DNA of 64,000 nucleotides, taken from contig BOKZ01000001.1 in the NCBI GenBank assembly GCA_016861245.1, forward strand, positions 77,107 through 141,106. Direction: 5' to 3'. This DNA is from Patescibacteria group bacterium. Lineage in GTDB: Bacteria > Patescibacteriota > UBA1384 > 2-12-FULL-50-11. The position numbers and the translations under genes are program-made. The notes below the pieces were generated by a model. It searched no databases. It was not told the DNA's origin and worked only from the letters and a program-made list of their open reading frames with translations. This document shows positions 1-60,591 of the stretch, in pieces. Position 1 is the stretch's first letter. Every line of letters begins with the position of its first letter.

Positions 1-3000
1 TTTACCTCTACCACAAGTGGTAAGACCCTTAACGGTCAGATGACCGGCTCAAACGACGACTTTTATAATCTGGTTTTTGATGGTGTTAGCGGCGCCTGGA
101 CGTTCAACGCTGCCGTTGATGTTGCTAACGACTTTACAGTTACCAACGGCTCCGTCACCGCCAACGGAAATAATCTTACCGTTACCCGAGACTTTACGCT
201 CGCTAACACGTCGGGTGTTTCGTATGTGGCTGGTACTACAACCATTACGGTTTCACGTCATTACACCGATCTTGGCAGTAAGTTTTCGGCTGGAACATCG
301 ACGCTTACTATGAACGGTACGGGTGCGCTCGACCACGCCAATGCCTTTGCATTCTACAACCTTAATCTCGCCTACTCCGGCTTTACAACAACTATGGGCA
401 CCTCAAAATCAACTCGGGTTAGTAACGACGCCACCTTAAACGGCGGAACAATGACCGGAAGCAGTACTTCTTTGGAGTTTCCATCAACGACCACAAACAC
501 ACCGCTCACCTTCAATTCACCCACAACCCTCAACGGTACAGGCTTTAACATTATCGGTTACGGTGCAAACACAGCTAGTATTACAGTAACAATTGGCAGC
601 GGCGACTACGGAAACTGGAACCTGTTTTTCTTTGCCTCAGCTAATAATGTTGCTCATAACTTTGGCGGTAATGTCACGACAACTGCCCACTCCCGCTTTT
701 ATGCTGGTGGTGCCGTGACGGGTTTAACGCTGAACACCCAAGGGCATAACTTTACCTCTGGTAGCTTCAGACTTGGATCAGGTGGCGCAACCCAAACAGT
801 CTCGGCAAATTTTGGTGCCTCAGCTGTTACCTTCACAAGTACAGTAGATGCGATAGACGCAGAAAATACCGGAGGAACGTATAATTTAGATCTTGGATCA
901 TCGACTGTTGATGTAAAGGGTAACGTTTTATTCCTAGATGGTAGTGGCAGTATAAGCGTTACGCCAGGTACTTCTACTCTTAAATGGACCCACACTTCCG
1001 GGACCAAGACGTACACACCCAACGGACAGTCGCTCTACAACATGGAACTTGATGCCTCCGGCGGAGTTGTCCAGTCAACGGCAGCCGTTGATGTAAACAA
1101 CAACTTCACGGTTACCGCCGGAACGTATGACCTCAACTTTAGTGGGTTAACTATCGGTGGTAATTATTCAAATTCTGGAACTTTCACGGCTACTACCGCC
1201 ACAGTTACGTTTGATGCTACCGATACCGGCAATACGCTCAGCGGAACAATGACCGGTTCGTCAGCATTTTGGAACGTTGTATTTAATGGCACTGGCGGCG
1301 AGTGGACAGTAAACGCCTCCCTGAAGATTGATAACGACTTAACAATGACGGCTGGGACATTCCTTGGGGCACAAGATATTACCGTTGCCGGTAACGCAGT
1401 AGGAACAGCGGGAATAATCAACTTAAGCGGTGGCACATTTGACATGCGGCCATATTCTGTATCGCCCAATTTTGGTACTACGTCTGGATCTACGGCTTGG
1501 ACCTTTAACAACCTCTCATTCTCATCAGCTCATCCGTTTGATCCAAAAGTTATCACAACCAACACCGGTGGTACGGGGGGAATTAATGTTAGTGGGACTA
1601 TGACGATCGGGAAGGTCGGAGACAGTGAAAGTACAACGCTCAATGCAGGTAATCGAACCTGGACACTCTCGGGGACTAGCGGCGATCCGTTCCAAATTCT
1701 TGCCTCCCCTGCCGGTGACCTAACACCAGAAACTTCCACATTTACTTACACTGGCAACAACGGCTCCGGCGACACTACTATCCAGAGCGAGACGTACAAC
1801 ATACTTCAAGTTAATAACGGCTCAGAAACCTTTAACCTGGAAGCAGCAACATTCAGCAGCGATGTCACAATTACGGCCGGAACGCTGGCGCTAAACGGAC
1901 AAACCCTAAACGCTACTAATGATTTAGCGGTAAACGGAACATTATCGGGATCAACAAACGTAACTGTTAACGGCTCGGTTACTGGATCGGGAACAATTAA
2001 TCTTTCTGGCGGTACATTTACTCAAAGAATAACGGCTAACGCCAACGAGACTTTTGGTAGTACAAGCGGAACTAATAACTGGACGTTTAATAACTTATTG
2101 TTTAGAAATTCCGACACAAACAATCACTCAATCACCGTAAATCCTACTGGCAGCGGACAAATTATCGTTGGTGCAACCGCTACATTTGGAAGCGGTACGG
2201 ATACCAACACCGTTACCGTTGATTTCGATACGAACGATCGAATACTCGATGTTAACGGAAGTGTAGATATCACAACACTTGGTATATTAGAGCCCTCAAG
2301 TAGCGCCTCCTTTACCGTCGGCGACAACTGGACAAATAACGGAACGGTAACGTTTGATACTACGACAACAGCAACATTTGCCGGTGCGACAACGTTCTAC
2401 AATTTTACCTCCACAACAGCCGCTAAAACGCTCGAATTCACTTCTGGTCAAACATTTACCATCGACACAGGCGGCTTACTTACTCTTACCGGTGCAGCCG
2501 ACCCGAACGAGATTCAGATTAAATCAACAACACCGACTAGCCAGTGGTTTATTAATCACCAGGGAACAGAATCAGTTAGCTACGTCCAAGTTGTAGACTC
2601 TGGCTGTGACGTTGCCAGTACTCAAATTAGCACTTCTAACTCAGTTAATGACGGCAACAACGGCTCGTGTTGGCTCTTTGGCTCAACGTTCGAGCAAGCC
2701 GATTATCGATTTGGGGAAGATCCAGAAGATAGCTCCACTGGTATAGATTACTCTGGGCCAGCTGAAAATACAGCGTACACTTCTCCGGGCACAAGCGACG
2801 GCTTCCGGTTGCGAATGCTTATTCACGTTGGCGGCAGCAACCTCGCCCAAAACGGCGAGACGTTTAAGTTGCAGTTTGGCGAAAAAACAGCAGCCAACTG
2901 TACTACCGGCGTTTCCTGGGCTGACGTGAGCCCGAGTTCGGGAGTGATTCGCTACCTCGATGCTGCGCCAGCAGACGGCGATAATATTTCGAGCGTTGCC

Positions 3001-3693
3001 GGCGACCCAGATCACTCTGGCCACACCAAGCAGTATCAAGATTTCGAAGAGGCAAATAACTTTACTAACTCAGTTTCGGCGATAAACTCTGGTCAGGACG
3101 GCGTCTGGGCTTTCTCGCTTGTTAATCACTCAGCGGTTGGCGGTAAGCGCTATTGTTTTAAGGCAGTTAAATCAACCGGAGCAGACTTAGATACGTATAG
3201 TTTCTACCCTGAAGTCATTATCGACGAAGAGCTAGTTTTCTCTCTAGATGCGACATCGAAGAACTTCGGCGTCGTACAACCAGGTGATAACCCAACAAAC
3301 CAAACTTCGACCGTAACCGTTACTACTAACTCGGCTACCGGCTACGTGGTTTACACTTGGAGCACTCAAGCAATGACCAAGGGCGCGCATACTATCCCGG
3401 ATTGGAGCGGTACCAACGCCTCGCCAACTAGTTTTCCAAACGGTAGCTTCGGTTTCGGCTACTCAACCGACGACAGTACATTAACTGGCGGTACAGCCGA
3501 TCGCTTTACGAACGGCGGCGCCAAATACGCCGGTTTTATTCATAACGGTCCTGGCGATCCGGTTGCCGATCGGACCAGCGGACCGGTAGTGAATGAGCAA
3601 AACACCATTACCTATCGACTAGCTGGTGGCGTGGGGCAGCAAGCCGGTACGTATACAACAGTAGTGGTCTATGTCGTTGCCACTACCTTCTAG
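1..3693 (+). CDS. Giant secreted beta-strand-repeat surface protein, 5'-truncated by the window edge, with a C-terminal WxL-like domain
   Basis: The frame is open from nt 1 with no stop upstream of the ORF-track Met at 40, for over 1230 aa. Composition is Thr/Gly/Asn/Ser-rich. Degenerate ~150-200-aa repeats each contain (A/E)WTFN / WTVN / NNWTFNN plus AAVDV(A/N)N(D/N)FTVT(N/A)G; the nucleotide repeats at 100-160 and 1084-1122 are diverged copies. The last ~180 aa are homologous to the C-terminus of the 4747..5895 protein and end ...YRLAGGVGQQAGTYTTVVVYVVATTF. Confidence 0.8.
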   Translation, partial: FTSTTSGKTLNGQMTGSNDDFYNLVFDGVSGAWTFNAAVDVANDFTVTNGSVTANGNNLTVTRDFTLANTSGVSYVAGTTTITVSRHYTDLGSKFSAGTSTLTMNGTGALDHANAFAFYNLNLAYSGFTTTMGTSKSTRVSNDATLNGGTMTGSSTSLEFPSTTTNTPLTFNSPTTLNGTGFNIIGYGANTASITVTIGSGDYGNWNLFFFASANNVAHNFGGNVTTTAHSRFYAGGAVTGLTLNTQGHNFTSGSFRLGSGGATQTVSANFGASAVTFTSTVDAIDAENTGGTYNLDLGSSTVDVKGNVLFLDGSGSISVTPGTSTLKWTHTSGTKTYTPNGQSLYNMELDASGGVVQSTAAVDVNNNFTVTAGTYDLNFSGLTIGGNYSNSGTFTATTATVTFDATDTGNTLSGTMTGSSAFWNVVFNGTGGEWTVNASLKIDNDLTMTAGTFLGAQDITVAGNAVGTAGIINLSGGTFDMRPYSVSPNFGTTSGSTAWTFNNLSFSSAHPFDPKVITTNTGGTGGINVSGTMTIGKVGDSESTTLNAGNRTWTLSGTSGDPFQILASPAGDLTPETSTFTYTGNNGSGDTTIQSETYNILQVNNGSETFNLEAATFSSDVTITAGTLALNGQTLNATNDLAVNGTLSGSTNVTVNGSVTGSGTINLSGGTFTQRITANANETFGSTSGTNNWTFNNLLFRNSDTNNHSITVNPTGSGQIIVGATATFGSGTDTNTVTVDFDTNDRILDVNGSVDITTLGILEPSSSASFTVGDNWTNNGTVTFDTTTTATFAGATTFYNFTSTTAAKTLEFTSGQTFTIDTGGLLTLTGAADPNEIQIKSTTPTSQWFINHQGTESVSYVQVVDSGCDVASTQISTSNSVNDGNNGSCWLFGSTFEQADYRFGEDPEDSSTGIDYSGPAENTAYTSPGTSDGFRLRMLIHVGGSNLAQNGETFKLQFGEKTAANCTTGVSWADVSPSSGVIRYLDAAPADGDNISSVAGDPDHSGHTKQYQDFEEANNFTNSVSAINSGQDGVWAFSLVNHSAVGGKRYCFKAVKSTGADLDTYSFYPEVIIDEELVFSLDATSKNFGVVQPGDNPTNQTSTVTVTTNSATGYVVYTWSTQAMTKGAHTIPDWSGTNASPTSFPNGSFGFGYSTDDSTLTGGTADRFTNGGAKYAGFIHNGPGDPVADRTSGPVVNEQNTITYRLAGGVGQQAGTYTTVVVYVVATTF

Positions 3694-3695
3694 CT

Positions 3696-4679
3696 ATGAT
3701 GAGACGTATGAGGTTTAGAATACTACTGGCCACTACTGCCTTGATACTCCTTAGTTTAAACGTACCAAGTGATATCTCTGCTCAGGGCGGCGCGATTAGC
3801 CCGACGATCGGCGTATCTCCAACGAAAGTTCTCGAAAGCATCACCCCCGGGAAAGAACAGACATTCACTGTTAGACTGCGTAATTATGGTCGCGATTCGC
3901 TGCCCCTGGCCGGCTCAACGCAAGGAATCTCGACGATCGGAGAAACAGGAGTGCCAATATTTACTAACAACGTTACACCGCATTCGGCTAGTAGCTGGCT
4001 CGAAGTGGCAAACAAAGATGTTATTGTCGAACCAGGCGAACAACAGGAAGTGACAATTACCGCCAAGCCGCCGCAAGACTTAGCGCCAGGAAGCTATCAC
4101 GCTGGCATTATTTTCCAAGCAAAATTGCCGTCGTATTACTTTGACCTCGACAGCGACACCAGGGTTCTACCGGCGATTAGCGTACTCTTCTTCTTAACTG
4201 TTGAGAGCGATACGTTACCGACCGTAGAAGATTTAAAAATAACCGGCATTCAAGTACCGAGAATCGTTGTAAGTACACCGCTATCCGTTACCGCTCAAAT
4301 CCAAAACCCGAGCAACTTTTACGTGCAAGCCGACGCCAAGGCCACTATTCGTGGTGGGTTAAATAATAAAAACGATAGCGAGGAAATCGGTCGGGTGTTG
4401 CTACTGCCAGAAGGTGTGAGAAAGTTCGTAAGCGCATATAGCAATCGCCTCTTGCCTGGCATCTATACCGCCTCAGTCGAGCTAAAACAAGGTGATAAGG
4501 TATTGGTGGCCAGCGCTAAGTTCGTAGCGATGCCCTGGCAATTTACCATCGGGTTAATTATCGGGACGTTTATTATTCTATTCTTTGCTTTCCGCCGTCG
4601 CTTTAAACACGCCTATCGAGTACTAGTCGGCAAGGAACCGCTTCACCCACCGCGCAAGCGCCAACCGACCCTACGATAG
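3696..4679 (+). CDS. Signal-peptide protein with C-terminal TM anchor and basic tail (DUF916/DUF3324-like architecture); paralogue of 5905..6903
   Basis: The N-terminus is MMRRMRFRILLATTALILLSLNVPSDISAQ, a signal peptide. The C-terminus is WQFTIGLIIGTFIILFFAFRRRFKH, a TM helix followed by a basic tail. Length and topology match 5905..6903. It starts 2 nt after the preceding stop. Confidence 0.7.
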   Translation: MMRRMRFRILLATTALILLSLNVPSDISAQGGAISPTIGVSPTKVLESITPGKEQTFTVRLRNYGRDSLPLAGSTQGISTIGETGVPIFTNNVTPHSASSWLEVANKDVIVEPGEQQEVTITAKPPQDLAPGSYHAGIIFQAKLPSYYFDLDSDTRVLPAISVLFFLTVESDTLPTVEDLKITGIQVPRIVVSTPLSVTAQIQNPSNFYVQADAKATIRGGLNNKNDSEEIGRVLLLPEGVRKFVSAYSNRLLPGIYTASVELKQGDKVLVASAKFVAMPWQFTIGLIIGTFIILFFAFRRRFKHAYRVLVGKEPLHPPRKRQPTLR

Positions 4680-4746
4680 TGCTTGACAGACAATTTAGGA
4701 TTATGGATAGTTATTAATAGATATGAAGAACTTTGGAGGGGAATCT

Positions 4747-5895
4747 ATGAGTAAAACGCTAGGGAAACTATTCAGGACATCGCTCGTTGTCGGCTTGATT
4801 GCAATTCAGTTTATTGCGCCAAGAGCTCTCGCGGCACCAGTAGAAGATTTGAGTATTCTACTCTCCGATTCCCGAGCTTCGACAGCTACGAACGTAACAA
4901 TTACGTACGATCAGGCAGCCGGTGGTGACTTTAGCGCTGGTGACACGATCGTTGTTACCTTCCCTACCGCGTTCGATACTTCTGGTTTTGCAAGTACCGA
5001 TGCACTTGACTACGACATCACTATTAATGGCGTGGAGGAAACAATAGTGGACTCAGGAGATGCCTGCACCACAGATGTGATTGAAATTACTACAGTGGCT
5101 TCGGACGTGTTTACATTTACCGCATGCTCGGGATTTGTGGGAGAAGCAGCTGGCACTATCATTGTAATTGAGATAGGTACTCATGCTACTGCCGGTGGTA
5201 CAGGAAATACCCAGGCAGTAAACTCAACTGCCGCCACCTATACCTTTAATGTTGACAGTACCGATGAAGACGCAAAGGACGCCCTTGTTGCCGTGACCAG
5301 CGGAGTAACACTTTCAGCTACAATTGACGAGACACTCACCTTTACAGTAGCTGGTGTTACAACAGGTAACTGTAGCGTATCCGGCGGTACAGAAATTGAC
5401 ACATCTGGTAGCGCTACGACAATTCCATTTGGCACAATCAACTCAGATGCATTTTACGACGCTTGTCAGAACCTAACAGTAGGAACAAACGCTGCTGGTG
5501 GTTACTCGACGACCGTAAAAACGACTGCCCGACCAACCTCAGGATCAAACACAATCTCAGAGGGTACATGTGATGGCGGTTGTAGTGATACAGTTGCAGC
5601 TGCTTGGGCTACTGCGACAAATAACGGTTACGGTTACTGTCTTAAAGATGAAGTCGGTGACGGCGCTGTTACATCTGGCTGGAGCGGTACAAATGAATGT
5701 GGTGACGGTACTCAACATTTCAAGACAATCAATCGAGTAGATGCAACCGAATCTGGCCAATCGATTATGGCAAGTGCTGTCGCAACGTCAACCAACGATC
5801 AAACTGAAATAGGTTACCGAATTGCCGTTGGAGCGGGACAAGCTGCTGGTACTTACACCACAGTAATCATTTACGTAACGACGCCAACGTTCTAG
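4747..5895 (+). CDS. Secreted Thr/Gly-rich surface protein with an N-terminal LLSDSRA-type domain (paralogue of the 6907 protein N-terminus) and a C-terminal WxL-like domain (paralogue of the ORF1 C-terminus)
   Basis: GGAGGGG lies 5 nt before the ATG at 4747. The ORF track starts at 4723, which has no RBS. The signal peptide is MSKTLGKLFRTSLVVGLIAIQFIAPRALA. The C-terminus, ...IGYRIAVGAGQAAGTYTTVIIYVTTPTF, aligns with the ORF1 C-terminus at TVTTNSATGY/TVGTNAAGGY, GFGY/GYGY and the final block. Confidence 0.8.
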   Translation: MSKTLGKLFRTSLVVGLIAIQFIAPRALAAPVEDLSILLSDSRASTATNVTITYDQAAGGDFSAGDTIVVTFPTAFDTSGFASTDALDYDITINGVEETIVDSGDACTTDVIEITTVASDVFTFTACSGFVGEAAGTIIVIEIGTHATAGGTGNTQAVNSTAATYTFNVDSTDEDAKDALVAVTSGVTLSATIDETLTFTVAGVTTGNCSVSGGTEIDTSGSATTIPFGTINSDAFYDACQNLTVGTNAAGGYSTTVKTTARPTSGSNTISEGTCDGGCSDTVAAAWATATNNGYGYCLKDEVGDGAVTSGWSGTNECGDGTQHFKTINRVDATESGQSIMASAVATSTNDQTEIGYRIAVGAGQAAGTYTTVIIYVTTPTF

Positions 5896-5904
5896 AATAC
5901 AAAC

Positions 5905-6903
5905 ATGGAGTTCGAGGTGAAACCTCTCCTCTCCTTCGGGAGGAGAGTATCACTAGTTTTGGTCGCTCTTGGATTGGTGTTTTTGGTAAATAGTTCAAGA
6001 ATTGAAGCACAGGAAGCCGGTGAGAAAGTGGCGCTATCGATCTCTCCTTTAAACTTTGAATTCACTATTAACCCGGGTGAAACTCGTGAGGACGTAGTTA
6101 AGGTTACGAACCCAGACAGTGAGAAGACACAAACGATCACAATGGCAGTAGAACCGTTTCGTGGCGATGAAACAGGCCAGGTAACGGTGCTAGATGAAGA
6201 AGAGGACGATCCTGCCTATTCGTTAAAGCAATGGGTAACGATCTCGCCAAAAACTTTTACGCTTAAGCCTCGCGAGACTCGGGTAGTTACGTTCAAGACA
6301 GTTGTTCCCAAAAATGCCGAGCCAGGCGGTAAATACGGGGCTATAGTTGCCTCAACAGAACGCGGCGAGATTGGGCAAACAGGTGCTGTCACAGTTCAGA
6401 AAGTCGGTTCGCTCGTCTTACTGACAGTCCAAGGCTTTATTCAGTATAACGCCTCAGCCCGAGACTTTTATACAGTTAACAATACTGAAGATATCAGAGA
6501 CAGGGCACCTCAAAGCCTTTACGAGAAATCACCTGTTTATTTCCTGACCAGGCTACATAACAACGGCACAGTCCACATTAAACCGAAGGGCTTTATTACG
6601 ATATCGAACATTTTTGGTAAAAAAGTTGCTGATATCGAGGTTCCGGCGAAAAACGTGCTACCAGGGTCGGATCGCGCTCAGGTTGTTGAGTGGAACGACG
6701 CCAAGATGGGTCGATACACAGCAACGATGGTATTAAATTACGGCGATAAGAACCAGCAGATTACGGCAACGACATCGTTTACGGTATTCCCATGGAAAAC
6801 CGGTGTGCCGATTATTGTTGGGGTATTGGTACTGCTCTGGTTCCTAATAGCGAGACGTGCTCGAGTGGCTCGAGCTCTGAGTATAATATTTGGCAAACAT
6901 TAG
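5905..6903 (+). CDS. Signal-peptide protein with C-terminal TM anchor (DUF916/DUF3324-like architecture); paralogue of 3696..4679
   Basis: The N-terminus is MEFEVKPLLSFGRRVSLVLVALGLVFLVNSSRIEAQ. The C-terminus is PWKTGVPIIVGVLVLLWFLIARRARVARAL, a TM helix with a basic tail. The N-terminal codons contain a perfect 10-bp RNA hairpin at 5924-5947. Confidence 0.7.
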   Translation: MEFEVKPLLSFGRRVSLVLVALGLVFLVNSSRIEAQEAGEKVALSISPLNFEFTINPGETREDVVKVTNPDSEKTQTITMAVEPFRGDETGQVTVLDEEEDDPAYSLKQWVTISPKTFTLKPRETRVVTFKTVVPKNAEPGGKYGAIVASTERGEIGQTGAVTVQKVGSLVLLTVQGFIQYNASARDFYTVNNTEDIRDRAPQSLYEKSPVYFLTRLHNNGTVHIKPKGFITISNIFGKKVADIEVPAKNVLPGSDRAQVVEWNDAKMGRYTATMVLNYGDKNQQITATTSFTVFPWKTGVPIIVGVLVLLWFLIARRARVARALSIIFGKH

Positions 6904-6906
6904 CCC

Positions 6907-8148
6907 ATGACATGGGCGGGTCGGCTCCAAAACTTATTATCGGCGCTAATTATTTGTTTAGGCTTACTATTTCCGTATAGCGCACAGGCTGCCAAGCCGG
7001 ATCGGGTTGAAGATTTACTCAGCGACTCGCGGGCAGGGGTTACCTCAAGGCACACAATAACGATCGACCAAACTGGAGCAACGTCGTTCGACGCGACCGA
7101 TACAATTACCTTAACCTTTCCTAACTCGTTTACCGTCCCCGCCTTCACTCCATCCGACGTTACCTTTAACGACGGCTCTGCCCGAACAGTCGTTAACCCG
7201 TGCTCTGCTGGTGCAAACAACATCAGTATAGGGGTATCTGGCCAGGTTGTTACTTTTACCGCCTGTAGCGGATTTTCCTCTAGCGCCACGGGCAGCGTAA
7301 TCACAATCGTGCTTGGTACCGGCGCAACACAAATAACCAACCCGTCTACCTCTAGCGTGTACGTGGTCGAAACTGCTGGCACGTATGGCGACTCGGCACA
7401 AGGCGCAGCCGTTGCTATCACAACGGGAGTAAACCTGTCATTCACGATCCCAAGCCCGACGGGTAACGTCCGCTTTACCGGAGATGCCTTTCCGAACGCT
7501 ATAATCACAATCCTGGATGGCGGCTCGGTTGCTGGAACAGGAACAGCAAATAGTGTTAGCTTTTTTGACAAAACAATTACCGGTCTCGTGCCAGGAGTTC
7601 ATACTTTCAGTATCTACGGCCAGGCGCTCGACGGTCGAAAGACACTGACGATTAGTTTTAATTTAAACGTGATATCTGGCACAACCGTAACAATTAGCGG
7701 CATTCTCTTGCCGCCGATTTTAACCGTACCTAGTCAAGAAAAGCGGCCGAAAACCTTCGTCCAGTCTGGTTTAGCCAGACACAATAGCACCATCACAACC
7801 TTTACTGCCGGTCCGACCAACACCAATCAGCAAGCTACAACTAATAGTAGTGGCGAGTGGACGATTAACGTCCCCCTGGTTCTTCACTTGGGCGCGCACA
7901 CCGTCTCTGGTCTCGTCAACGACGGGAACGGCAACCAGAGCGTACTGACCGCCGCATCGAACTTTGAAATCCTACTTTCGGCCGATCTAAACGTAGATAA
8001 TTTGGTGAGTTTAACCGACTTTTCAATGCTGATGTTTAATTACGGCCTCTCGAACCCGCCGAACGCTGCTGCCGATATTAACGACAACGGCGGCCAAGTT
8101 GACCTAGTAGATTTCTCCGTGATGATGTTTTATTGGACAGGAGGTTGA
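6907..8148 (+). CDS. Secreted protein with an N-terminal LLSDSRA-type domain, Ig-like middle region and C-terminal dockerin-like double Ca-loop module
   Basis: The signal peptide ends ...FPYSAQA. The N-terminal domain is homologous to the 4747 protein (LLSDSRA, TFPNSF/TFPTAF, FTFTACSGF). The C-terminus is ADLNVDNLVSLTDFSMLMFNYG...ADINDNGGQVDLVDFSVMMFYW, two D-x-N-x-D-x-x-V-x-x-x-DF segments. Confidence 0.75.
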   Translation: MTWAGRLQNLLSALIICLGLLFPYSAQAAKPDRVEDLLSDSRAGVTSRHTITIDQTGATSFDATDTITLTFPNSFTVPAFTPSDVTFNDGSARTVVNPCSAGANNISIGVSGQVVTFTACSGFSSSATGSVITIVLGTGATQITNPSTSSVYVVETAGTYGDSAQGAAVAITTGVNLSFTIPSPTGNVRFTGDAFPNAIITILDGGSVAGTGTANSVSFFDKTITGLVPGVHTFSIYGQALDGRKTLTISFNLNVISGTTVTISGILLPPILTVPSQEKRPKTFVQSGLARHNSTITTFTAGPTNTNQQATTNSSGEWTINVPLVLHLGAHTVSGLVNDGNGNQSVLTAASNFEILLSADLNVDNLVSLTDFSMLMFNYGLSNPPNAAADINDNGGQVDLVDFSVMMFYWTGG

Positions 8149-8150
8149 TG
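8124..8150 (+). repeat. 27-bp exact direct repeat GATGTTTTATTGGACAGGAGGTTGATG, copy 1 (last codons of the dockerin protein plus its stop)
   Basis: The same 27-mer recurs at 8201-8227. It contains GGAGG plus TGATG. Confidence 0.9.
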
Positions 8151-8225
8151 GAATCAACTGAGTGGACAATGAAAGTTCGAGAATTTTCGAAGAAAATTAA
8201 GATGTTTTATTGGACAGGAGGTTGA
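8148..8225 (+). CDS. Possible 25-aa mini-ORF (MESTEWTMKVREFSKKIKMFYWTGG) created by the 27-bp duplication
   Basis: Its ATG overlaps the TGA of the upstream gene (TGATG), with GGAGG 3 nt upstream. It ends MFYWTGG* like the upstream protein. Its TGA overlaps the ATG of the next gene. Confidence 0.3.
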   Translation: MESTEWTMKVREFSKKIKMFYWTGG

Positions 8226-8227
8226 TG
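8201..8227 (+). repeat. 27-bp exact direct repeat, copy 2 (supplies the RBS and ATG of the first cohesin-like gene)
   Basis: Identical to 8124-8150. The repeat starts are 77 nt apart; 50 nt separate the two copies. Confidence 0.9.
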
Positions 8228-8725
8228 AATAGACTTCGTTATACTCTCCTACTCCTAGCCATTATCGGATCTGGTGCTCTGCTCTATTTTTCGCTGACTC
8301 GAGAAAAAATACCAGCAAAGATCGTTTTAGATGTTCCGCAGTCGATCAAACAATCAGAGACCTTCGATGTCCCGCTGAGAATTTCTACCACCACAGCGAT
8401 GAACGCCGCTGAATTCTACTTCTCGTTTCCGGCAGAATTGGTTGAGGTAAGTGAGATTAATCAAACCGGCTCGATTTACTCGCTCTGGATTAAGGACCAG
8501 CCGGCGTTTAACAACGCTCTTGGCGAGCTATCGTTGGCAGGCGGGCTGCCAAAACCTGGCTTTGTCGGTCGTAACGGTTTAATTGCAATAGTAAAATTTA
8601 AAGCCAAAAAACGCGGTGATGGTGTAATAACACTCGATCAAAATAAAAGTAGAATCCTGGCTAACGACGGTCTCGGAACGAAAATTGAAGCTACATTCGA
8701 ACCGGTTACACTGACTGTAAAATAG
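8225..8725 (+). CDS. N-terminally membrane-anchored single cohesin-like domain protein
   Basis: ATG 8225 follows GGAGG. The ORF track uses TTG at 8210. There is an N-terminal TM (LLLLAIIGSGALLYF). The domain reads FDVPLRISTT...AEFYFSFPAELVEVSEI...GGLPKPG...GLIAIVKFKAKKRGDGVITL...ILANDGLGT...TLTV, which mirrors the strand order of a cohesin beta-sandwich. Confidence 0.65.
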   Translation: MNRLRYTLLLLAIIGSGALLYFSLTREKIPAKIVLDVPQSIKQSETFDVPLRISTTTAMNAAEFYFSFPAELVEVSEINQTGSIYSLWIKDQPAFNNALGELSLAGGLPKPGFVGRNGLIAIVKFKAKKRGDGVITLDQNKSRILANDGLGTKIEATFEPVTLTVK

Positions 8726-8764
8726 ACGCCGCTTTTTCAGTGGTTCTGGTGTAATATGAAGTAG

Positions 8765-10423
8765 ATGAAGGCGAGGGGTCTACTAGTTTTTGGGGCGATA
8801 GTCTTCGGTATACTGCCAGTATTATTAACAGTTAAACCGGTAAAAGCGGCTGCCGCTTCGTATTATTTTTCTCCGAGTACGATCAAGCTTAATGTCGGTC
8901 AGTCGACCACTGTGTCGCTTTTCCTTTCCACCGACACCGCTATTAACGCTGGCGATGGAACTATTGTATTGCCGACTTCTTACGTCAGTGGGAGCTCAAT
9001 TAGTAAATCTGGCTCGATCTTTGCTAACTGGCCCGAAGAGCCGGGTATCAGTGGAGCGAGTATTAGATTTGCCGGCGGTTTACCAACCCCTGGATACCAG
9101 GGAACTTCAGGTAGGGTTCTAAGCGTTACGATTAGAGGAGTTGCGGAAGGAACAGGGTTAATTACCATTTCTGGCGGTCGGATCCTCGCCAATAATTCCG
9201 GTTCGACTAACATCTTCAGTGGTGCGTCATCGGCTACCGTGACGGTAACTCGAGTAGTCACCGGTGCAGCGATCACATCTACAACCCACCCCGATCCGAC
9301 AAAGTGGTACAAGGCAAAAGATGCTAGTTTAGCATGGACAAAACCGACCGGCGCAACAAGTTACTCGTATACCCTCAGCCATGACGGCGGCCAGCCGAGT
9401 AAGTCTGGCTCCGGATCTGCAACGTCGGCTAATTTCTCCGAATTATCCGACGGTATTTGGACGTTTTCGCTCGTAACAACGTTCTCAGACGGCAAGACTG
9501 CCAGCTCTTCCTACACGATTAGAGTCGATACCACCCCGCCGGCAAAATTCGAGTTTACAACTGAACGCAAAAACGGCTCCACCGATCCGTTCCCGGTTAT
9601 TAGTTTTACCACTACCGACACGCCATCTGGAATCGAGCGATACGAAATTATCGTTGATAATAACGAACCGATCTCAACAACTGAAAGCACATTTAAACTG
9701 CCGAAGCAGCGGCCAGGCAAACATACTATTATTGTTAGAGCAATCGACAAAGCAGGTAACAGCACCGACTCTGTCGGCAGTTTTAACGTCGATGGTTTCG
9801 CCGGCCCGATTATTACCGATTACCCCTCAATCGTTTCGATCTTTCAGAAGATTAAGCTAACCGGTACAGCTTTATACGGCGCGAAGGTGCAACTGTACAT
9901 CGGCGGTATCGTGGTAGAAGAATTTATCGTTAAAGATCACCTGAGCGATAACCAGAAAGAGTCTCCGGAGATCGCAACTGTCACAGATGATCGCACTGTT
10001 GAGTGGACATATGAGATGAAAAACGGGCAACTGCCAGGTTATCGGTTACTATACGCCACACAAACCAAGCCCGACGGCGCTGAAAGTAACCAATCTAACC
10101 AAATAAAGTTTCTTGTGGCGCCGGATTCGGTGAACGTATTTGGGTTTAGTGTTCCCCTATTACTCGTTGTCTTTCTCCTACTTATTGTACTAGTAGTTGC
10201 CGGCGCATTTATAGTTATCGGTTACCGTCGCGTAAGAGGCGTCGTAATAAAAAGAAGAAAAAATAACGAAGAACTGGAACGAATAGTAAAAGAAAAAATG
10301 GACGGACTGCAGCACGACTTGGAGCGTCGCATAAGCCGTACTACTAAGGACCCTGATAGCATTATTAAAGACGAGATCGACGGCACAGAAGAAGAGATAA
10401 TTAGCGAGATCGAGAAAAATTGA
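8765..10423 (+). CDS. Cohesin-like N-terminal domain plus Ig-like repeats (S.TH.DP.KWY, VDTTPPAKF) plus C-terminal TM anchor and charged coiled tail: scaffoldin-like surface protein
   Basis: It has a signal peptide. A paralogous domain carries GGLPTPG and ILANNSG. A TM segment (LLLVVFLLLIVLVVAGAFIVIGY) is followed by RRVRGVVIKRRKNNEELERIVKEK... Confidence 0.7.
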   Translation: MKARGLLVFGAIVFGILPVLLTVKPVKAAAASYYFSPSTIKLNVGQSTTVSLFLSTDTAINAGDGTIVLPTSYVSGSSISKSGSIFANWPEEPGISGASIRFAGGLPTPGYQGTSGRVLSVTIRGVAEGTGLITISGGRILANNSGSTNIFSGASSATVTVTRVVTGAAITSTTHPDPTKWYKAKDASLAWTKPTGATSYSYTLSHDGGQPSKSGSGSATSANFSELSDGIWTFSLVTTFSDGKTASSSYTIRVDTTPPAKFEFTTERKNGSTDPFPVISFTTTDTPSGIERYEIIVDNNEPISTTESTFKLPKQRPGKHTIIVRAIDKAGNSTDSVGSFNVDGFAGPIITDYPSIVSIFQKIKLTGTALYGAKVQLYIGGIVVEEFIVKDHLSDNQKESPEIATVTDDRTVEWTYEMKNGQLPGYRLLYATQTKPDGAESNQSNQIKFLVAPDSVNVFGFSVPLLLVVFLLLIVLVVAGAFIVIGYRRVRGVVIKRRKNNEELERIVKEKMDGLQHDLERRISRTTKDPDSIIKDEIDGTEEEIISEIEKN

Positions 10424-11394
10424 TGAGACGGCTGTTTGGCCTCTGCTTACTATTTATCGCAACCGTACTACCGTGGTCGGAGGTCGACGCAGCCGGAGTT
10501 ACTTTATCGTTCTCGCCGAATCAAGGCCAGTATCTAACCGATTCGACCTTTGATGTCTCGCTAGTACTAAATACCAACGGACAAGCGATAAACGCTTTGG
10601 AAGTATATGTGAGTTACCCGGCCGATAAGCTCCAAATTGTTAGCCCGACAACTGGCAACTCATTTATCTCGATTTGGATAGCCGGCCCAAGCTACTCGAA
10701 CTCAGACGGTACAGCAACGTTTTCGGGCGGGTTACCGACCCCCGGTATCACCACCAGCGCCGGGATTATTAGCACTGTTAAGTTCAGGGCAAAAGCTTCT
10801 GGTAGGGCGGTCGTTACATACCAAACCAAATCTAAAATTTTAGCCAACGACGTCAGCGGAACAAGCTTACCGATTACCTTTGGGCAAGCGGTTATTAATA
10901 TTTCTAACGCGCCGCCAGCAGGCCCGATTGTAAGCTCGACCTCCCACGAAGATCCGGGCAAATGGTACGCCGATCGGACTTTCCTGGCGAGCTGGGAGGC
11001 AGTTGGCAGTGAGTACAGCTATCTATTCGACCAATTCCCAACTACAACTCCGGATGAGACAGCCGAAACAACGACGACTGCGATAACTGAAGCGATACAA
11101 GAAGACGGACAGTGGTACTTTCATATTCGTGCCAGGAAAAACGAAGTTTGGGGAGCAACGACGCATTTTGTGCTTCGGGTTGATACCACCCCACCCGCCA
11201 AATTTACAATTCAAGCCGATACGTTAGCCATACGATCCGGTGAACGTGGGATATTTTCGTTCGTCACAACCGATAGCGGCAGTGGCGTTGATTACTACGA
11301 GGTCAGGGTTATGAACCAATCCGGCGACTCCAGCGAAGCAACGACGTTTATCGAAGCGACTAGCCCCTATCAACTACCGCAGCCTTATCAGTAA
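10423..11394 (+). CDS. Cohesin-like N-terminal domain plus Ig-like repeats, without a C-terminal anchor; possibly the 5' part of a disrupted scaffoldin-like gene
   Basis: The ATG at 10423 overlaps the preceding TGA. It has a signal peptide, GGLPTPG, ILANDVSG, S.SHEDPGKWY and VDTTPPAKF. It ends ...PYQLPQPYQ with stops in the following 20 nt. Confidence 0.65.
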   Translation: MRRLFGLCLLFIATVLPWSEVDAAGVTLSFSPNQGQYLTDSTFDVSLVLNTNGQAINALEVYVSYPADKLQIVSPTTGNSFISIWIAGPSYSNSDGTATFSGGLPTPGITTSAGIISTVKFRAKASGRAVVTYQTKSKILANDVSGTSLPITFGQAVINISNAPPAGPIVSSTSHEDPGKWYADRTFLASWEAVGSEYSYLFDQFPTTTPDETAETTTTAITEAIQEDGQWYFHIRARKNEVWGATTHFVLRVDTTPPAKFTIQADTLAIRSGERGIFSFVTTDSGSGVDYYEVRVMNQSGDSSEATTFIEATSPYQLPQPYQ

Positions 11395-11416
11395 CCCAGC
11401 ACTGATTAATATTGCG

Positions 11417-11653
11417 GTGATTTCTTCTATCTTTCTTTTGCTACTGTTGCTGCTTATCCTAATTAGAAATTACCGAGAGAAAAACCGATTAAACCGAGTA
11501 ATTAACGAGGTTCGGCATCTTCAGGAAGAAATTAGAGTCCGACGTCAGGAGCTGGAAAAGCTAGAGAACGCTTACGGCCAGACATCTAGTAGCCTCAATT
11601 CGCTAGTCCAAGGCGACCAGTCCAGGCAGACGCTCCCCACTCAACAGCTTTAA
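11417..11653 (+). CDS. Small TM plus coiled-coil protein, possibly the detached C-terminal anchor of the 10423 gene
   Basis: GTG start. The sequence is ISSIFLLLLLLLILIRNYREKNRLNRVINEVRHLQEEIRVRRQELEKLE, which resembles the TM plus charged tail of the 8765 protein. It overlaps the pgk 3' end convergently. Confidence 0.35.
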   Translation: MISSIFLLLLLLLILIRNYREKNRLNRVINEVRHLQEEIRVRRQELEKLENAYGQTSSSLNSLVQGDQSRQTLPTQQL

Positions 11654-46851: not shown

Positions 46852-48747
46852 TTGGCCGTAACTAACGACATTATTAAAAAAATTAGTCAGAAAACGTCGA
46901 TGCCGACCTTTAAGGTCCGAGCGTATTTGCGCGGCGCGACAGATGTAATTGGCGCTGCTCTTCAAGAAGGTGAGAAAGTTGAGCTGCCAGAACTCGGCAC
47001 ATTTAAACTTCTCCGATTGCCGATCCGAAAAGTTGAGACAAATTTCGGCGGTAAAAAACAAGTACTTAAACTAGCCGCAACGACAACACCGGATTTCGAC
47101 ATCAGTGAGACGCTGAAGCCGCTGGTTCGCTCTACTCCGCCGTCGCAAGCACCGCAGCAGCCGGTTGAAGATAACTTTCGTATCAGCCCGCTACACAATC
47201 GTGAAAGTAGCGTTCAGTTTATCGAATTAAACGGTAAGGTTATCCCGAAAACGATTTTGGCGCTAGTTCCGGAGAATCTAGCTAAAAAATACCAGGCTGT
47301 GCCGTTTGCCCTAGAAGAGAAAGTACTCTCGATCGCGATGACCGATCCGGAGAACGAAGAGGCGTTCAACGCCATCAGAAAAACCTCTGGAAAAATTCTC
47401 AAACCGTTTTTAACTACTCAAGAAGATATTAATTATATTCTCGATCAATATTCGGCACTACAATCAGAGCTAAACGAACTAGTCGAAAACTCTGAGACCG
47501 ACGATATCTCGACTATCGAAGAGCAAGAAGAAAAGGTTAGCGACGAGGATATAACCGAAACGTCCCCCGCCGCAAAAATAGTTAGCTCACTGCTTAAGCG
47601 CGGCGTGCGCGAGAAAGCTTCAGATATCCATATCGAGCCAAGCGAAGACGACGTACAGGTGCGGTTTCGTGTCGACGGCGTTTTGCGCAAAGTCCTGGCT
47701 CTACCAAAAGAAGTTCAGCCAGCGCTTATCTCACGGATAAAAATTCTGTCGAATTTAAAGATCGATGAAACTCGCCTACCGCAAGACGGTCGTATTCAGA
47801 TCTTACTCGACGCTAACAAAATAGATTTCCGTATCTCAACGATTCCCACCGTAAACGGCGAGAAGATTGTGGCTCGAATTCTTGACCACTCGAAAGGAAC
47901 GTTAACGTTCGATCAGCTCGGTGTCCGCGGCCGGTCGCTAACCGTATTACAAGAAAATATTAAAAAAGCGCACGGTATGACGTTAGTAACCGGACCGACC
48001 GGTTCCGGTAAATCGACGACGCTTTACGCTATCGTTAGCCAAATTAAAGACGACGGCGTCAATATCGTAACAATGGAAGATCCGGTCGAATATCGAATGC
48101 CAGGCGTCAACCAAAGCCAGGTAAACTCTAAAATTGGTTTCACGTTCACGAGCGGTTTACGCTCAATTTTGCGACAAGACCCAGACGTCGTAATGGTTGG
48201 TGAAATTCGCGACAAGGAAACTGCCGACATCTCGATTAACGCTGCGCTTACAGGTCACATCGTGCTTTCGAGTCTACACACCAACGACTCAGCCGGTGCG
48301 CTGCCACGTCTGTTAGATATGGGAATCGAGCCGTTTTTGATCACCTCTTCGACAAACGCCATCATCGCTCAAAGGTTATGCCGAAAGATCTGCGAAAAAT
48401 GCCGCCAGGAGGATATGGTTAAGCCAGAAGACGTCGAGCTAATTAAAAAAGAGATTGAAAGTCTTCCGGAGCTGGAGCGCGGCGAAGCTTCAAAGAAAAA
48501 AGCCTTTTACAAGGGCGCCGGCTGCGCGGCTTGCGGTAAAACTGGTTACAAGGGCCGTATCGGTATCTTTGAGATATTAACGGTAACCGAAGGCGTTAAA
48601 ACATTAACCTTAAAAAGAGCGTCAAATAGCGACATTTTAGCTCAGGCAAAGCAAGACGGTTTAATCACGATGCGCCAAGACGGTATCCTTAAAGCGCTCG
48701 ACGGGTTAACAACGATCGAGGAGATCTGGCGAGTTACAAAAGAATAA
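46852..48747 (+). CDS. pilB: Type IV pilus assembly ATPase PilB/GspE with an N-terminal HU/IHF-like (DNABII) domain fused in frame
   Basis: The TTG start follows GGAGG. Residues 1-95 (MAVTNDIIKKISQKTSMPTFKVRAYLRGATDVIGAALQEGEKVELPELGTFKLLRLPIRK...) align with HU. A GspE_N-like segment follows. The ATPase core has VTGPTGSGKSTTLYA and a tetracysteine motif. Confidence 0.85.
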   Translation: MAVTNDIIKKISQKTSMPTFKVRAYLRGATDVIGAALQEGEKVELPELGTFKLLRLPIRKVETNFGGKKQVLKLAATTTPDFDISETLKPLVRSTPPSQAPQQPVEDNFRISPLHNRESSVQFIELNGKVIPKTILALVPENLAKKYQAVPFALEEKVLSIAMTDPENEEAFNAIRKTSGKILKPFLTTQEDINYILDQYSALQSELNELVENSETDDISTIEEQEEKVSDEDITETSPAAKIVSSLLKRGVREKASDIHIEPSEDDVQVRFRVDGVLRKVLALPKEVQPALISRIKILSNLKIDETRLPQDGRIQILLDANKIDFRISTIPTVNGEKIVARILDHSKGTLTFDQLGVRGRSLTVLQENIKKAHGMTLVTGPTGSGKSTTLYAIVSQIKDDGVNIVTMEDPVEYRMPGVNQSQVNSKIGFTFTSGLRSILRQDPDVVMVGEIRDKETADISINAALTGHIVLSSLHTNDSAGALPRLLDMGIEPFLITSSTNAIIAQRLCRKICEKCRQEDMVKPEDVELIKKEIESLPELERGEASKKKAFYKGAGCAACGKTGYKGRIGIFEILTVTEGVKTLTLKRASNSDILAQAKQDGLITMRQDGILKALDGLTTIEEIWRVTKE

Positions 48748-49961
48748 TGCCGATCTACAGTTACACGGTCAAAAAGTCTGGCGGTAAGCCTCAAAAAGGT
48801 CAGATCGAGTCTGAGAGCGTGACCGAGGCGACCAAGAAACTACGAGCCGAAGGTTTCTTGGTACTCGAATTAAACGAAGGGGTCGCGCAAGGACATAAGC
48901 TAAATATCGGTTTTCTAACGAAGCGGGTTTCGCTTAAAGAAAAGATAATCTTTACTCGGCAACTGTCGGTCATGATTAAGGCCGGGCTACCAATCGTTAA
49001 ATCGCTCGACGCGCTCAAGCGTCAAACTCAACAGAAGTACTTTAAAGAAGTAATAGAATCGCTTTCGACACAACTCAAAGGCGGCCAAACGCTTTCAAAA
49101 GCGATGATGAAGTATCCAAAAGTCTTCTCCGAAATTTACACCGCTGTTGTTAAAGCCGGAGAAGAAACCGGACAGCTCTCGGACGTACTACTCAATCTTG
49201 CCGATCAACAAGAAAAGGAAGCTGACTTGATCGGGAAAATTAAAGGAGCGATGATCTACCCGATTATCATTCTTCTTTCGTTAGTCGGTGTCGCCGGGCT
49301 AATTGTTTTCTTTGTATTGCCAAGTCTCGAAGGTATTTTCGCTGATTCCGGGCAAGAGCTGCCGATACTAACCAGGATCTTGCTTGGCACTAGTACGGCA
49401 ATTCGAGAGTACTTTCTAATAATTCTGCCGATAATGATCGCCGCCTTTTACGGTATGCGGCTGTGGTTTAAAACGAAAACCGGTCAGGCGTTTTACGATC
49501 GGTTAAAGATCTCTGTGCCGGTATTCGGTTCGCTAACCAAAAAAGTCTATATGGCGCGCTTCTCTCGAACCTTAGCGATGTTAATTAAAGCAAGTTTGCC
49601 GATACTGCTGTCGATCCGCATTATTCGCAAAACAATTAGCAACGTTCACTACGACGCTGCCTTCCAGCGAATCGACAAGCTTGTTGAAAGCGGTAAGTCG
49701 CTCTCAGCAGCGATTGATCGTGAGCCGCTGTTCCCCCCAATGGTTTCACAGCTAACAAGTCTTGGTGAGGAGTCGGGAACGTTGGAAGGAGTTTTGCTTG
49801 AAATTGCCACATTCTACGACAAGGAGGTCGATACGACCTCAAAAAATCTGTCAACGTTACTGGAGCCGTTGCTACTGATTATTATGGGTGTCGGTGTCGC
49901 GTTTGTAGTAGCAGCCGTGCTTGGGCCGATTTACGGCTTAGTTCAAAACTTTGGTGGGTAA
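48747..49961 (+). CDS. pilC: Type IV pilus platform protein PilC (GspF family)
   Basis: Two T2SSF repeats and 3 TM. It overlaps the pilB stop (TAATG). Confidence 0.85.
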   Translation: MPIYSYTVKKSGGKPQKGQIESESVTEATKKLRAEGFLVLELNEGVAQGHKLNIGFLTKRVSLKEKIIFTRQLSVMIKAGLPIVKSLDALKRQTQQKYFKEVIESLSTQLKGGQTLSKAMMKYPKVFSEIYTAVVKAGEETGQLSDVLLNLADQQEKEADLIGKIKGAMIYPIIILLSLVGVAGLIVFFVLPSLEGIFADSGQELPILTRILLGTSTAIREYFLIILPIMIAAFYGMRLWFKTKTGQAFYDRLKISVPVFGSLTKKVYMARFSRTLAMLIKASLPILLSIRIIRKTISNVHYDAAFQRIDKLVESGKSLSAAIDREPLFPPMVSQLTSLGEESGTLEGVLLEIATFYDKEVDTTSKNLSTLLEPLLLIIMGVGVAFVVAAVLGPIYGLVQNFGG

Positions 49962-49998
49962 TAACTGGTGAATTTGGTATGGTAATAACGGAGGGAAC

Positions 49999-57451: not shown

Positions 57452-57474
57452 AATTACTATAAGTTATATAAGAA

Positions 57475-58854: not shown

Positions 58855-58859
58855 TTCAA

Positions 58860-60029: not shown

Positions 60030-60051
60030 TAATTAGGAAAAATAGAAATCA

Positions 60052-60474
60052 TTACTTTTTCTTGAGAAACCATTTAATCGATTCACCTGGATAGCCGTAT
60101 ATTTCCCCAGTGCGGCAGACGTAACTTTCTCGGGACAATTTCCCGCTGCGATAACTCTGTATAACCCTATCCATTTCCCGCATCTTTTCTGCGGCGTCTT
60201 TCCTGTAGACATGTAGTAAGTATCTGTCTTCGCCATGCTTACTCAATGCAACTTCACAACCATACCCCTTAGCAAGTTGCTTTAGCTCTACAAAGCCTCC
60301 GTTACTAATATCGTTTCTATTAAGTCCAGTGTCTAGACATGCGATGTCTCTTGTTCTGTTTCTAATTAATAACGCATATACAACCAGCTGCCCGGCCAAA
60401 AAAGCCTGCCTATGTTCTCCATATTTATATCTTATAGGTTGCATATAATAATTATACTTGGTCGCCGTATCCAC
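60052..60474 (-). CDS. Hypothetical 140-aa basic protein
   Basis: GTG start. I recognise no motif. Low GC. Confidence 0.4.
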   Translation of the reverse strand: MDTATKYNYYMQPIRYKYGEHRQAFLAGQLVVYALLIRNRTRDIACLDTGLNRNDISNGGFVELKQLAKGYGCEVALSKHGEDRYLLHVYRKDAAEKMREMDRVIQSYRSGKLSRESYVCRTGEIYGYPGESIKWFLKKK

Positions 60475-60489
60475 CAGCGACCAAGCTGG

Positions 60490-60573
60490 TTACTCTTCGT
60501 AGCCACAGTTTGGGCAAACCCAACCGTCGTCATCCTCTATCATCTCTTCATCGCAATTCGGGCAATTCATCAT
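60490..60573 (-). CDS. 27-aa zinc-ribbon micro-protein (MMNCPNCDEEMIEDDDGWVCPNCGYEE)
   Basis: AGGAG lies 6 nt upstream of ATGATG. The pattern is CxxC-x14-CxxC. It falls below the ORF-track cutoff. Confidence 0.45.
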   Translation of the reverse strand: MMNCPNCDEEMIEDDDGWVCPNCGYEE

Positions 60574-60591
60574 AGTCTCCTGTAAGGTACT

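Follow-up and report, generated by a model that had tools for sequence, protein, structure and literature searches.

Bacteria of the Candidate Phyla Radiation (CPR), which live attached to host cells, represent a major part of bacterial diversity, and hardly anything is known of how they build their surface filaments and hold them in place. Among the closest known relatives of the locus examined here is the Pam pilus of Ca. Mycosynbacter amalyticus, reported in 2026 (bioRxiv 10.64898/2026.03.03.709456), whose pilin joins an N-terminal sandwich domain, through a linker strand, to a truncated immunoglobulin (Ig) C-terminal domain, with the linker strand donated to the C-terminal domain of the neighbouring pilin. 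In the same preprint PamC and PamD are PapD-like membrane-anchored chaperones, an acceptor-only protein is proposed at the tip and a transmembrane protein that only donates a strand, PamR, at the base; PamR is described as one polypeptide made up of an N-terminal strand, two fibronectin type III (FnIII) domains and a transmembrane helix. We analysed a 64,000-nucleotide stretch of contig BOKZ01000001.1 from a Patescibacteria group bacterium, referred to in full as the window. Its positions 1-11653 hold eight co-directional, tightly packed genes on the + strand, labelled A to H, which are best read from their sequences as a single pilus operon of the Pam (donor-strand-exchange) type from a Saccharimonadia-like CPR bacterium. 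The Pam operon and the window appear to follow the same logic, with pilins, transmembrane-anchored chaperones and a last, strand-donating protein that ties the fibre to the membrane. In the window the role of PamR seems to be split between protein E, which carries a strand, two Ig domains and a dockerin, and downstream proteins that combine a cohesin with a transmembrane helix. Neither cohesin nor dockerin is mentioned in the Pam preprint or its supplement (bioRxiv 10.64898/2026.03.03.709456).

Cohesins and dockerins of the cellulosome provided a second point of comparison, for which we used the type I pair CaCohA2-Doc0917 of C. acetobutylicum (6KGC), the OlpC and OlpA cohesins of C. thermocellum (4DH2, 3UL4) and a B. 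cellulosolvens dockerin (2Y3N_B). Type I dockerins possess a duplicated DxNxDGxxxxxD loop plus helix, the pattern also read in the tail of E, and the near-symmetry of the two repeats in E recalls their dual binding mode. Type I cohesins have the same beta-sandwich fold as the model of protein F (template modelling (TM) scores of 0.73-0.77). In the cellulosome and the window alike, the cohesin carrier is anchored to the cell. Unlike the cellulosome, the window operon contains no enzymes and no carbohydrate-active context, serves a single dedicated and pilin-like dockerin client, and relies on transmembrane helices rather than SLH domains or sortase for anchoring; unlike a multi-cohesin scaffoldin, its proteins carry one cohesin each. 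Sequence similarity between cellulosome cohesins and those of the window is too low for a profile-to-PDB match. The system is not a cellulosome, and the original prediction, made from the nucleotide sequence, was right to see no evident cellulolytic context; the operon contains no glycoside hydrolase. Non-cellulosomal cohesins from Archaeoglobus fulgidus (2XDH) and the C. perfringens toxin complex (2VO8, 2JH2, 2W1N) occupied Foldseek ranks 19-30 for the F model. Peer et al. are said to have described, in 2009, cohesin and dockerin modules outside cellulose degradation, in proteins of other function. In most of those non-cellulosomal cases the partner and purpose are unknown or the modules belong to glycosidase complexes, whereas here they form a strictly syntenic cassette in a pilus operon across the CPR.

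We propose that E terminates the pilus and that its dockerin plugs into membrane cohesins, a reading to which we assign a probability of about 0.55. E (6907..8148, + strand) is a protein of 413 aa with a signal peptide cleaved after AQA at residue 28, a pilin N-terminal domain (6991-7416), a pilin-type linker strand with the sequence VNLSFTI (7429-7449), two complete Ig domains (7462-7974, residues 186-356) and the dockerin. Residues 15-190 aligned with pilin C at 36% identity (E-value 9e-21), and the alignment spanned the linker strand, which reads AITTGVNLSFTI in E and AVTSGVTLSATI in C. Past the linker E departs from C, continuing into two Ig domains and then the dockerin, and a hidden Markov model (HMM) of the pilin C-terminal domain detected no acceptor domain in E. 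The combination of a pilin N-terminal domain and linker strand with the lack of an acceptor domain thus marks E as a probable donor-only subunit. No other anchoring device (sortase signal, SLH domain or transmembrane helix) was seen in the protein. The AlphaFold2 (AF2) model of E had a predicted local distance difference test (pLDDT) score of 86.9; confidence was high for the N-terminal domain and for the two Ig domains, each of which was complete. A Foldseek search with the whole model returned generic tandem Ig/FN3 adhesins only, among them the basal pilin EbpB as a generic tandem-Ig similarity, and was uninformative on the N-terminal domain and the dockerin.

Homologues of E occurred in two forms, one of ~410 aa that resembles E and one of ~270 aa, in which a linker-like strand directly follows the signal peptide (for example ...QAGPPPVSSNTSVSATIPFPTG). 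In dockerin proteins from more distant CPR lineages the mature protein begins in the same way (ITVEITATV, SVNITASV, NVSISAIV); a linker that is rich in Cys or made of poly-Gly or poly-Pro comes next, then two Ig domains and finally the dockerin. Of 72 dockerin proteins, 26 carried a strand motif, defined by a strict regular expression, ahead of the first Ig domain, compared with ~5% expected by chance. We also observed a distinct Paceibacteria-type arrangement in the dockerin genes of seven loci (L019, L023, L033, L035, L036, L044 and L073; L numbers denote loci of relatives), which encode an N-terminal strand, a Cys-rich module, 10-20 glycines and the Ig domains. The Cys-rich module is conserved, one example being CGDGxIxSGEQCDGxNLGGxSCxSxGFxGGxLSCxSxCTFNTSxC.

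The dockerin module of E (7975..8145, + strand) comprises two repeats, DLNVDNLVSLTDFSMLMFNY and DINDNGGQVDLVDFSVMMFYW, in a C-terminus that reads ...SADLNVDNLVSLTDFSMLMFNY...ADINDNGGQVDLVDFSVMMFYWTGG. The Ca-loop of repeat 1 (D1/N3/D5/D12) was kept in 82-83 of 83 distinct tails; in repeat 2, D12, F and S were present in all 83, N3 in 78 and D/N5 in 81. The consensus of the 83 tails is DLNxDGRVNLVDFS...DLNGDGKVDLVDFS, and loop 2 of the window's tail has one extra residue. Within the E family, no other region was conserved as well as the dockerin (82% mean identity, compared with 46-64% for the other domains), and a profile of the tails retrieved almost only dockerins from the PDB sequences, the best match covering both repeats (2y3n_B, 2.8e-6). 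The conservation and the retrieval of solved dockerins argue that the tail is not a chance pattern; at the family level its sequence is that of a dockerin. Thus, the duplicated Ca-loop-plus-helix motif that the original prediction had placed at the end of this protein was recovered, with both segments present and the family profile and loop conservation in agreement. The suggested check with Pfam Dockerin_1 (PF00404, gathering score 22.9) gave a divided answer: the model was matched by 19 of 28 members of the tail family at E<0.01 (best 1e-13), and the window's tail scored 18.5 bits on its own and 15.1 bits within the whole of E.

The three genes that follow E encode proteins whose N-terminal domains are cohesins. 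F (8210..8725, + strand; ATG at 8225 the probable start) is a small protein with a signal-anchor helix (~8240-8296) as its sole hydrophobic anchor, located at the N-terminus, so that its cohesin (8312-8722) is placed directly on the membrane. G (8765..10423, + strand) is a large cohesin anchor with a signal peptide (VKA|AA), a cohesin (~8852-9250) and an Ig/FN3-like stalk with Big_13 and OmpL47-type matches (~9258-10114), after which a transmembrane helix (10145-10225, residues 461-487) leads into a charged cytoplasmic tail of 65 aa. H (10420..11394, + strand; ATG 10423) is the third of the cohesin paralogues; it has a signal peptide, a cohesin (~10492-10905) and ~1.5 Ig domains and ends before any anchor. 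Because homologues of F are 166 aa long, the ATG codons at 8225 and 10423 are probably a better choice of start than the TTG codons upstream of them. The three proteins were therefore anchored as had been described: F at its N-terminus, G at its C-terminus with a charged tail, and H with its anchor lost. Every sequence feature noted in the original prediction was found where it had been placed.

F, G and H have in common an N-terminal domain of ~135-160 aa that is 33-38% identical, with GGLPxPG and ILAN invariant, and G and H aligned over 320 aa (E-value 2e-27). When our own cohesin HMM (A2) was applied to F, G and H, it recovered the three as one family (3e-78, 7e-39 and 2e-46, respectively). 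Against Pfam Cohesin (PF00963, gathering score 24.1), H scored 30.9 bits, F scored 22.7 bits, and G had no match at E<1; the Pfam check that accompanied the original prediction therefore succeeded for H, narrowly missed for F and failed for G. Most of the 31 homologues of F have a precomputed PF00963 match, and one is named cohesin domain-containing protein by NCBI. The AF2 model of F, built from 33 aligned sequences, had a pLDDT of 95.3, and its top 50 Foldseek matches in the PDB were cohesins only (best 6kgc_A, E-value 6.5e-10; TM-scores up to 0.77). The predicted structure is a nine-stranded jelly-roll beta-sandwich of cohesin topology. Paralogous cohesin-like domains at the N-termini of three genes were thus confirmed by Pfam, with H above the gathering score, and by the Foldseek matches of F, and the model folded as a cohesin sandwich rather than as something else.

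The branch to which these domains belong is large, with 7962 representatives at 50% identity and E<=1e-3, and 4425 with E<=1e-10. The most conserved positions among 180 distinct cohesin domains (N65/A66, G111-G117 and L150-N-D-G-x-G-T) mapped in the F model to strands 3 and 8 and to the 5/6 loop, which would correspond to the dockerin-binding face of type I complexes. The representative library also contained a scaffoldin-like protein of 2276 aa (P0157) with nine stretches matching the CPR-type cohesin profile, and many proteins of ~800 aa with two cohesins.

A tail that binds Ca2+ as an EF-hand-like stabilising or ligand module, with no affinity for cohesins, would leave the cohesin-like proteins as independent Ig-like surface proteins. 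Such a tail would be consistent with the score of the window's dockerin below the Dockerin_1 gathering score, with the EF-hand models that some of its relatives also match, with an AF2 model of E that has no dockerin fold in the tail, and with a cohesin profile that has no sequence-level match in the PDB. We nevertheless consider this explanation very improbable, given that dockerin and cohesin genes are adjacent in all 86 sources surveyed, from many CPR classes, that the top PDB matches of the tail profile are almost all dockerins, that the fold match of the cohesin is specific, and that its conserved positions fall on the presumed dockerin-binding face.

To define the distribution of the cassette, we used a GTDB scan of one genome per species, which yielded 169 relatives; the best 80 loci were analysed, and together with five contigs carrying E homologues and the window they make up the 86 sources. 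The M. amalyticus genome is not among the 80 loci, all of which came from Patescibacteria bins or mislabelled bins and represented Saccharimonadia and many Paceibacteria lineages. Five of them (L043, L049, L067, L077 and L084) are labelled 'uncultured Gammaproteobacteria' in the records of the metagenome-assembled genomes, probably through mis-binning or mislabelling. Searches with our own HMMs revealed exactly one dockerin open reading frame (ORF) in each of the 86 sources, and one in the 64-kb window. Cohesin ORFs, 187 in total, were present in 86 of 86 sources and always lay directly downstream of the dockerin gene on the same strand. Their number ranged from one to four; sources with a single cohesin were contigs that end shortly after the dockerin gene, and the others had two to four. 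The cohesin domain directly followed a signal peptide or signal-anchor, and most of the proteins had a C-terminal transmembrane helix. A short cohesin form (~165 or ~300 aa) typically came first, followed by a form of ~580 aa; homologues at the position of G in relatives were ~490-690 aa. Of 64 loci with at least 2.5 kb of sequence available on the upstream side, 46 had a chaperone gene immediately before the dockerin gene.

These data also bear on the broader role in the original prediction, namely a general surface scaffold that recruits the dockerin-tagged protein and possibly others. Membrane cohesins would then display E, and maybe further dockerin proteins encoded elsewhere, as free adhesins or envelope components; E would lie outside the pilus, and its N-terminal domain would be an Ig-like binding domain. 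In favour of this role, the cohesin and dockerin identities hold. Several cohesins per dockerin are what a scaffold would provide, but exactly one dockerin ORF was found per locus and none elsewhere in the 64-kb window. Many Paceibacteria dockerin proteins start with modules other than the pilin N-terminal domain, which they lack, and the protein of 2276 aa in which nine stretches are cohesin-like has the look of a scaffold; E itself, in contrast, possesses the pilin N-terminal domain and linker strand, the dockerin gene directly follows a pilus chaperone in the 46 of 64 loci noted above, and transmembrane-anchored, strand-bearing proteins fill the same slot in other loci. We regard the scaffold as unlikely. 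The idea that further dockerin proteins are recruited was not supported, with a single dockerin protein per locus that is itself pilin-like, and a dedicated coupling of the pilus base to the membrane is the better reading.

A second sample was selected by pilin, which avoids dockerin-based selection. The first pilin alignment was too divergent for a metagenome scan, and the scan used was built on seven closer pilins and gave 50 loci. Among loci in which the sequence extends beyond the last chaperone, the gene after it encoded a dockerin protein in 13 distinct loci, and cohesin genes followed in 10 of these 13; in L092, L102 and L120 the contig ends at the dockerin gene, and in L111 the dockerin is cut by the contig end. 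In about six other pilin-selected loci (L094, L100, L107, L123, L124 and L133), this slot was occupied by PamR-like fused forms with a signal peptide, the strand motif, at least one Ig domain and a transmembrane helix at the C-terminus, and with no dockerin. Two of the fused proteins matched the E-type Ig HMM (2.6e-14 and 1.9e-10). As the fused form has the architecture reported for PamR, the slot holds either a strand-Ig-transmembrane protein or a strand-Ig-dockerin protein together with cohesin-transmembrane proteins. No PamR-type terminator with its own transmembrane helix was found in the window, where the dockerin of E takes the place of the helix. A covariation by clade between the dockerin helix (IAAY/MLMF) and cohesin strand 3 (Gly/EFY) was inseparable from phylogeny and was not used.

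The slot is also informative about a role in assembly. If the cohesins, and membrane-flush F in particular, held E transiently beside the chaperones in the manner of an usher, the pili would be attached by other means or released. The recurrence of short and long-stalk cohesin formats across lineages could reflect such a platform, and no dedicated machinery for assembly across the envelope was found in the Pam preprint. E, however, shows no other anchoring device, and in loci that have no dockerin the slot protein has a transmembrane helix of its own, an arrangement that points to a slot that serves for permanent anchoring. We therefore hold a purely transient platform to be improbable, more so than the scaffold, and retain the base-anchoring model.

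In the base-anchoring model, subunits would leave the cytoplasm through the Sec pathway and be retained by B and D, the membrane-anchored chaperones. A, whose only pilin part is a strand-accepting C-terminal domain, would start the fibre as its tip, and C would polymerise by strand exchange as both donor and acceptor of a strand. The strand of E would then fill the groove of the last pilin and growth would end; because E offers no groove, no further subunit could follow, and E would serve as terminator and base subunit. Its dockerin would bind the cohesin of F at the membrane surface, that of G on its ~300-aa stalk, or both, presumably in a Ca2+-dependent manner, and this bond would tie the fibre non-covalently to the cytoplasmic membrane, with separate roles possible for the two anchors. 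H would represent a third cohesin anchor, decaying in the lineage of the window. The gene order A to H would follow the proposed order of assembly, and E with its cohesin anchors would in effect be a split PamR. A last, non-extendable subunit that joins the fibre to the envelope has possible analogues in the PapH terminator and in sortase-dependent basal pilins (EbpB, 9LR7). PapH stays at the outer-membrane usher and basal pilins are attached covalently to peptidoglycan by sortase, whereas the link proposed for E is non-covalent.

Several observations weigh against this model. The matches of the pilins to their curated family, NF058581, fall under its cutoff, the window's dockerin lies slightly under the Pfam gathering score, and the same applies to the cohesin of F, while that of G has no Pfam match. 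In the AF2 model of E, residues 360-413 had a pLDDT of ~53 and formed two strands rather than helices; AF2 models no Ca2+. A search of the cohesin profile against PDB sequences returned no solved cohesin, only a chance match to uL14 (E-value 0.79), which indicates a divergent cohesin branch. The strict donor-strand motif is missing from about two-thirds of the dockerin proteins, many Paceibacteria forms have a Cys-rich module and poly-Gly linker instead, and there are two to four cohesin anchors for each single dockerin. In addition, the polarity of the Pam pilus and the role of PamR are AlphaFold-based proposals in a preprint (bioRxiv 10.64898/2026.03.03.709456).

In the wider form of the proposal, cohesin-dockerin pairing would be the standard coupling of a donor-strand-exchange pilus to the cytoplasmic membrane across much of Patescibacteria: non-covalent, Ca2+-dependent and probably very force-resistant, with a modular stalk length and interchangeable with PamR, so that pilus anchoring in episymbiotic ultrasmall bacteria would be the best-conserved non-cellulosomal role of these modules. 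We put this generalisation at slightly less than even odds. The anchoring step of the Pam pilus has so far consisted of one predicted protein; if the proposal is true, the dockerin-terminator and cohesin-anchor cassette would supply an anchoring mechanism for many CPR lineages and a concrete, testable cellular role for non-cellulosomal cohesin-dockerin pairs, and EDTA or a competing dockerin peptide should release the pili. Cohesin-dockerin bonds are among the strongest non-covalent protein bonds known from single-molecule force studies. Such strength would suit a joint under tension and could serve protein engineering.

No paper combining dockerin, cohesin and CPR bacteria was found in the literature searched. 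Three features are undescribed in that literature: the strict dockerin-cohesin cassette with which pilus operons of CPR bacteria end, the resemblance of its dockerin protein to a pilin, and the operon position that this protein shares with PamR-type anchors. Non-cellulosomal cohesin-dockerin pairs in general, and the public annotation of some of these proteins as cohesin-containing, were already known. We also considered the essential dockerin protein SEML1_0315 of Southlakia epibionticum (Cell 2023) as an orthologue of E and rejected it; it is encoded by a stand-alone gene, 927 aa in length, beside a tRNA gene and a hydrolase gene.

Upstream of E, the operon encodes the putative pilins and chaperones. 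A (1..3693, + strand) is represented by at least 1230 C-terminal aa of a giant surface protein; the frame is open at the start of the window, with no stop upstream of position 40, and the gene starts beyond the window edge. Its homologues are 2100-3045 aa long. The last ~145 aa of A (3256-3690, + strand) correspond to a Pam-pilin C-terminal (strand-acceptor) domain and matched NF058581 (CPR_Pam_pilin_C) over the full length of the model (E-value 7e-8; 33 bits, cutoff 55); neither a pilin N-terminal domain nor a linker motif was detected in A, which is likely to be a tip adhesin. C (4723..5895, + strand) is organised like the pilins of the Pam type: its N-terminal sandwich domain is followed by a linker or donor strand with the sequence SGVTLSATI (~5296-5325) and then by a C-terminal acceptor domain (5413-5892). 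It matched NF058581 at model positions 3-148 of 148 (E-value 2e-8; 34 bits, cutoff 55). With scores under the curated cutoff, A and C appear to be divergent members of this family. The linker motif, searched in the linker zone with a strict regular expression, was present in 18 of 22 pilins. Homologues with a named organism were all from Patescibacteria/CPR, mostly Saccharimonadia.

B (3696..4679, + strand) and D (5905..6903, + strand) are PamC/D-like chaperones. B is predicted to comprise a pair of WxLIP-like beta-sandwich domains with a transmembrane helix at the C-terminus; D also ends in a transmembrane helix, and its gene adjoins the dockerin gene E on the upstream side. In both proteins the C-terminus consists of a hydrophobic helix followed by basic residues, as in transmembrane-anchored chaperones of the PamC/D type. 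D matched Pfam WxLIP_PGBD at 34.0 bits (gathering score 27.3); B gave weak Pfam matches to WxLIP_PGBD and WxLIP_HBD and grouped with D in an iterated HMM search. These families are those of the WxL loci of Firmicutes (DUF916/DUF3324), whose proteins have the same C-terminal transmembrane helix, and the matches of the Pam-type chaperones to WxL-interacting proteins connect the Pam operon of CPR bacteria with the WxL loci of Gram-positive bacteria. The Pfam WxL domain itself had no match in the pilins of the window, and WxL loci are not known to carry cohesin or dockerin genes. The Pam preprint makes no mention of WxL (bioRxiv 10.64898/2026.03.03.709456).

H shows signs of stepwise decay while F and G stay intact. 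Downstream of its stop, a remnant of the transmembrane helix and coiled cytoplasmic tail lies in the +1 frame (11396..11653, + strand) and is homologous to the transmembrane helix and tail of the intact third cohesins of L011 (4e-8) and L016 (1e-4), which are 414-484 aa long. Comparison of H with its counterpart in L086 (12199-13500) revealed a DNA alignment gap of ~110 bp, the sum of three gap blocks (52, 52 and 6 columns) rather than one measured deletion length, together with a frameshift. The ~95% identical strains L086-L088 carry a frameshifted copy too, called as a 327-aa product. An artefact or sequencing error was rejected as the cause of the truncation, as three independent related contigs have a disrupted copy. 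Owing to the gap and frameshift, and to the out-of-frame remnant that still aligns with intact anchors, we conclude that this paralogue is decaying or, at best, yields a secreted cohesin that has no anchor.

We also noted a similar motif (...Q..PTQ or PTQQL) at the end of anchor tails, after a coiled charged segment, in the window (11396-11653) and in L006, L016, L094, L100, L124. A tail common to fused and cohesin anchors was considered and found unsupported, the terminal PTQ-like motif being the only similarity (BLAST E-value 0.47). In L086 and L087 (4489-6378), an extra gene encoding a 629-aa protein with a CBM96 domain is located between the first chaperone and the pilin. This gene is absent from the window, and its presence in the ~95% identical strains only suggests that the accessory content of the pilus operon varies at the strain level.

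Genes A to H are followed downstream by the convergent housekeeping genes pgk, tpiA, proS, rseP, frr, tsf and rpsB. Promoter and terminator scans gave results at chance level, and neither a tRNA gene nor an Rfam family at gathering score was detected in window positions 1-64000. A type IV pilus assembly cluster (PilB/T2SSE ATPase, PilC/T2SSF and PilM) is located at 46852-51048, and together with the Pam-type operon it indicates that two different pilus systems are encoded within 64 kb. The 631-aa PilB has an unusual fusion, in which an N-terminal HU-like domain (Bac_DNA_binding, 1.8e-8) precedes the MshEN and ATPase domains. The G+C content of the window is ~48%. At 56001-62000 it is 0.39-0.41, compared with ~0.48 elsewhere; this region may be acquired DNA, and its ORFs encode a putative methyltransferase, an M16-like peptidase and unannotated proteins.

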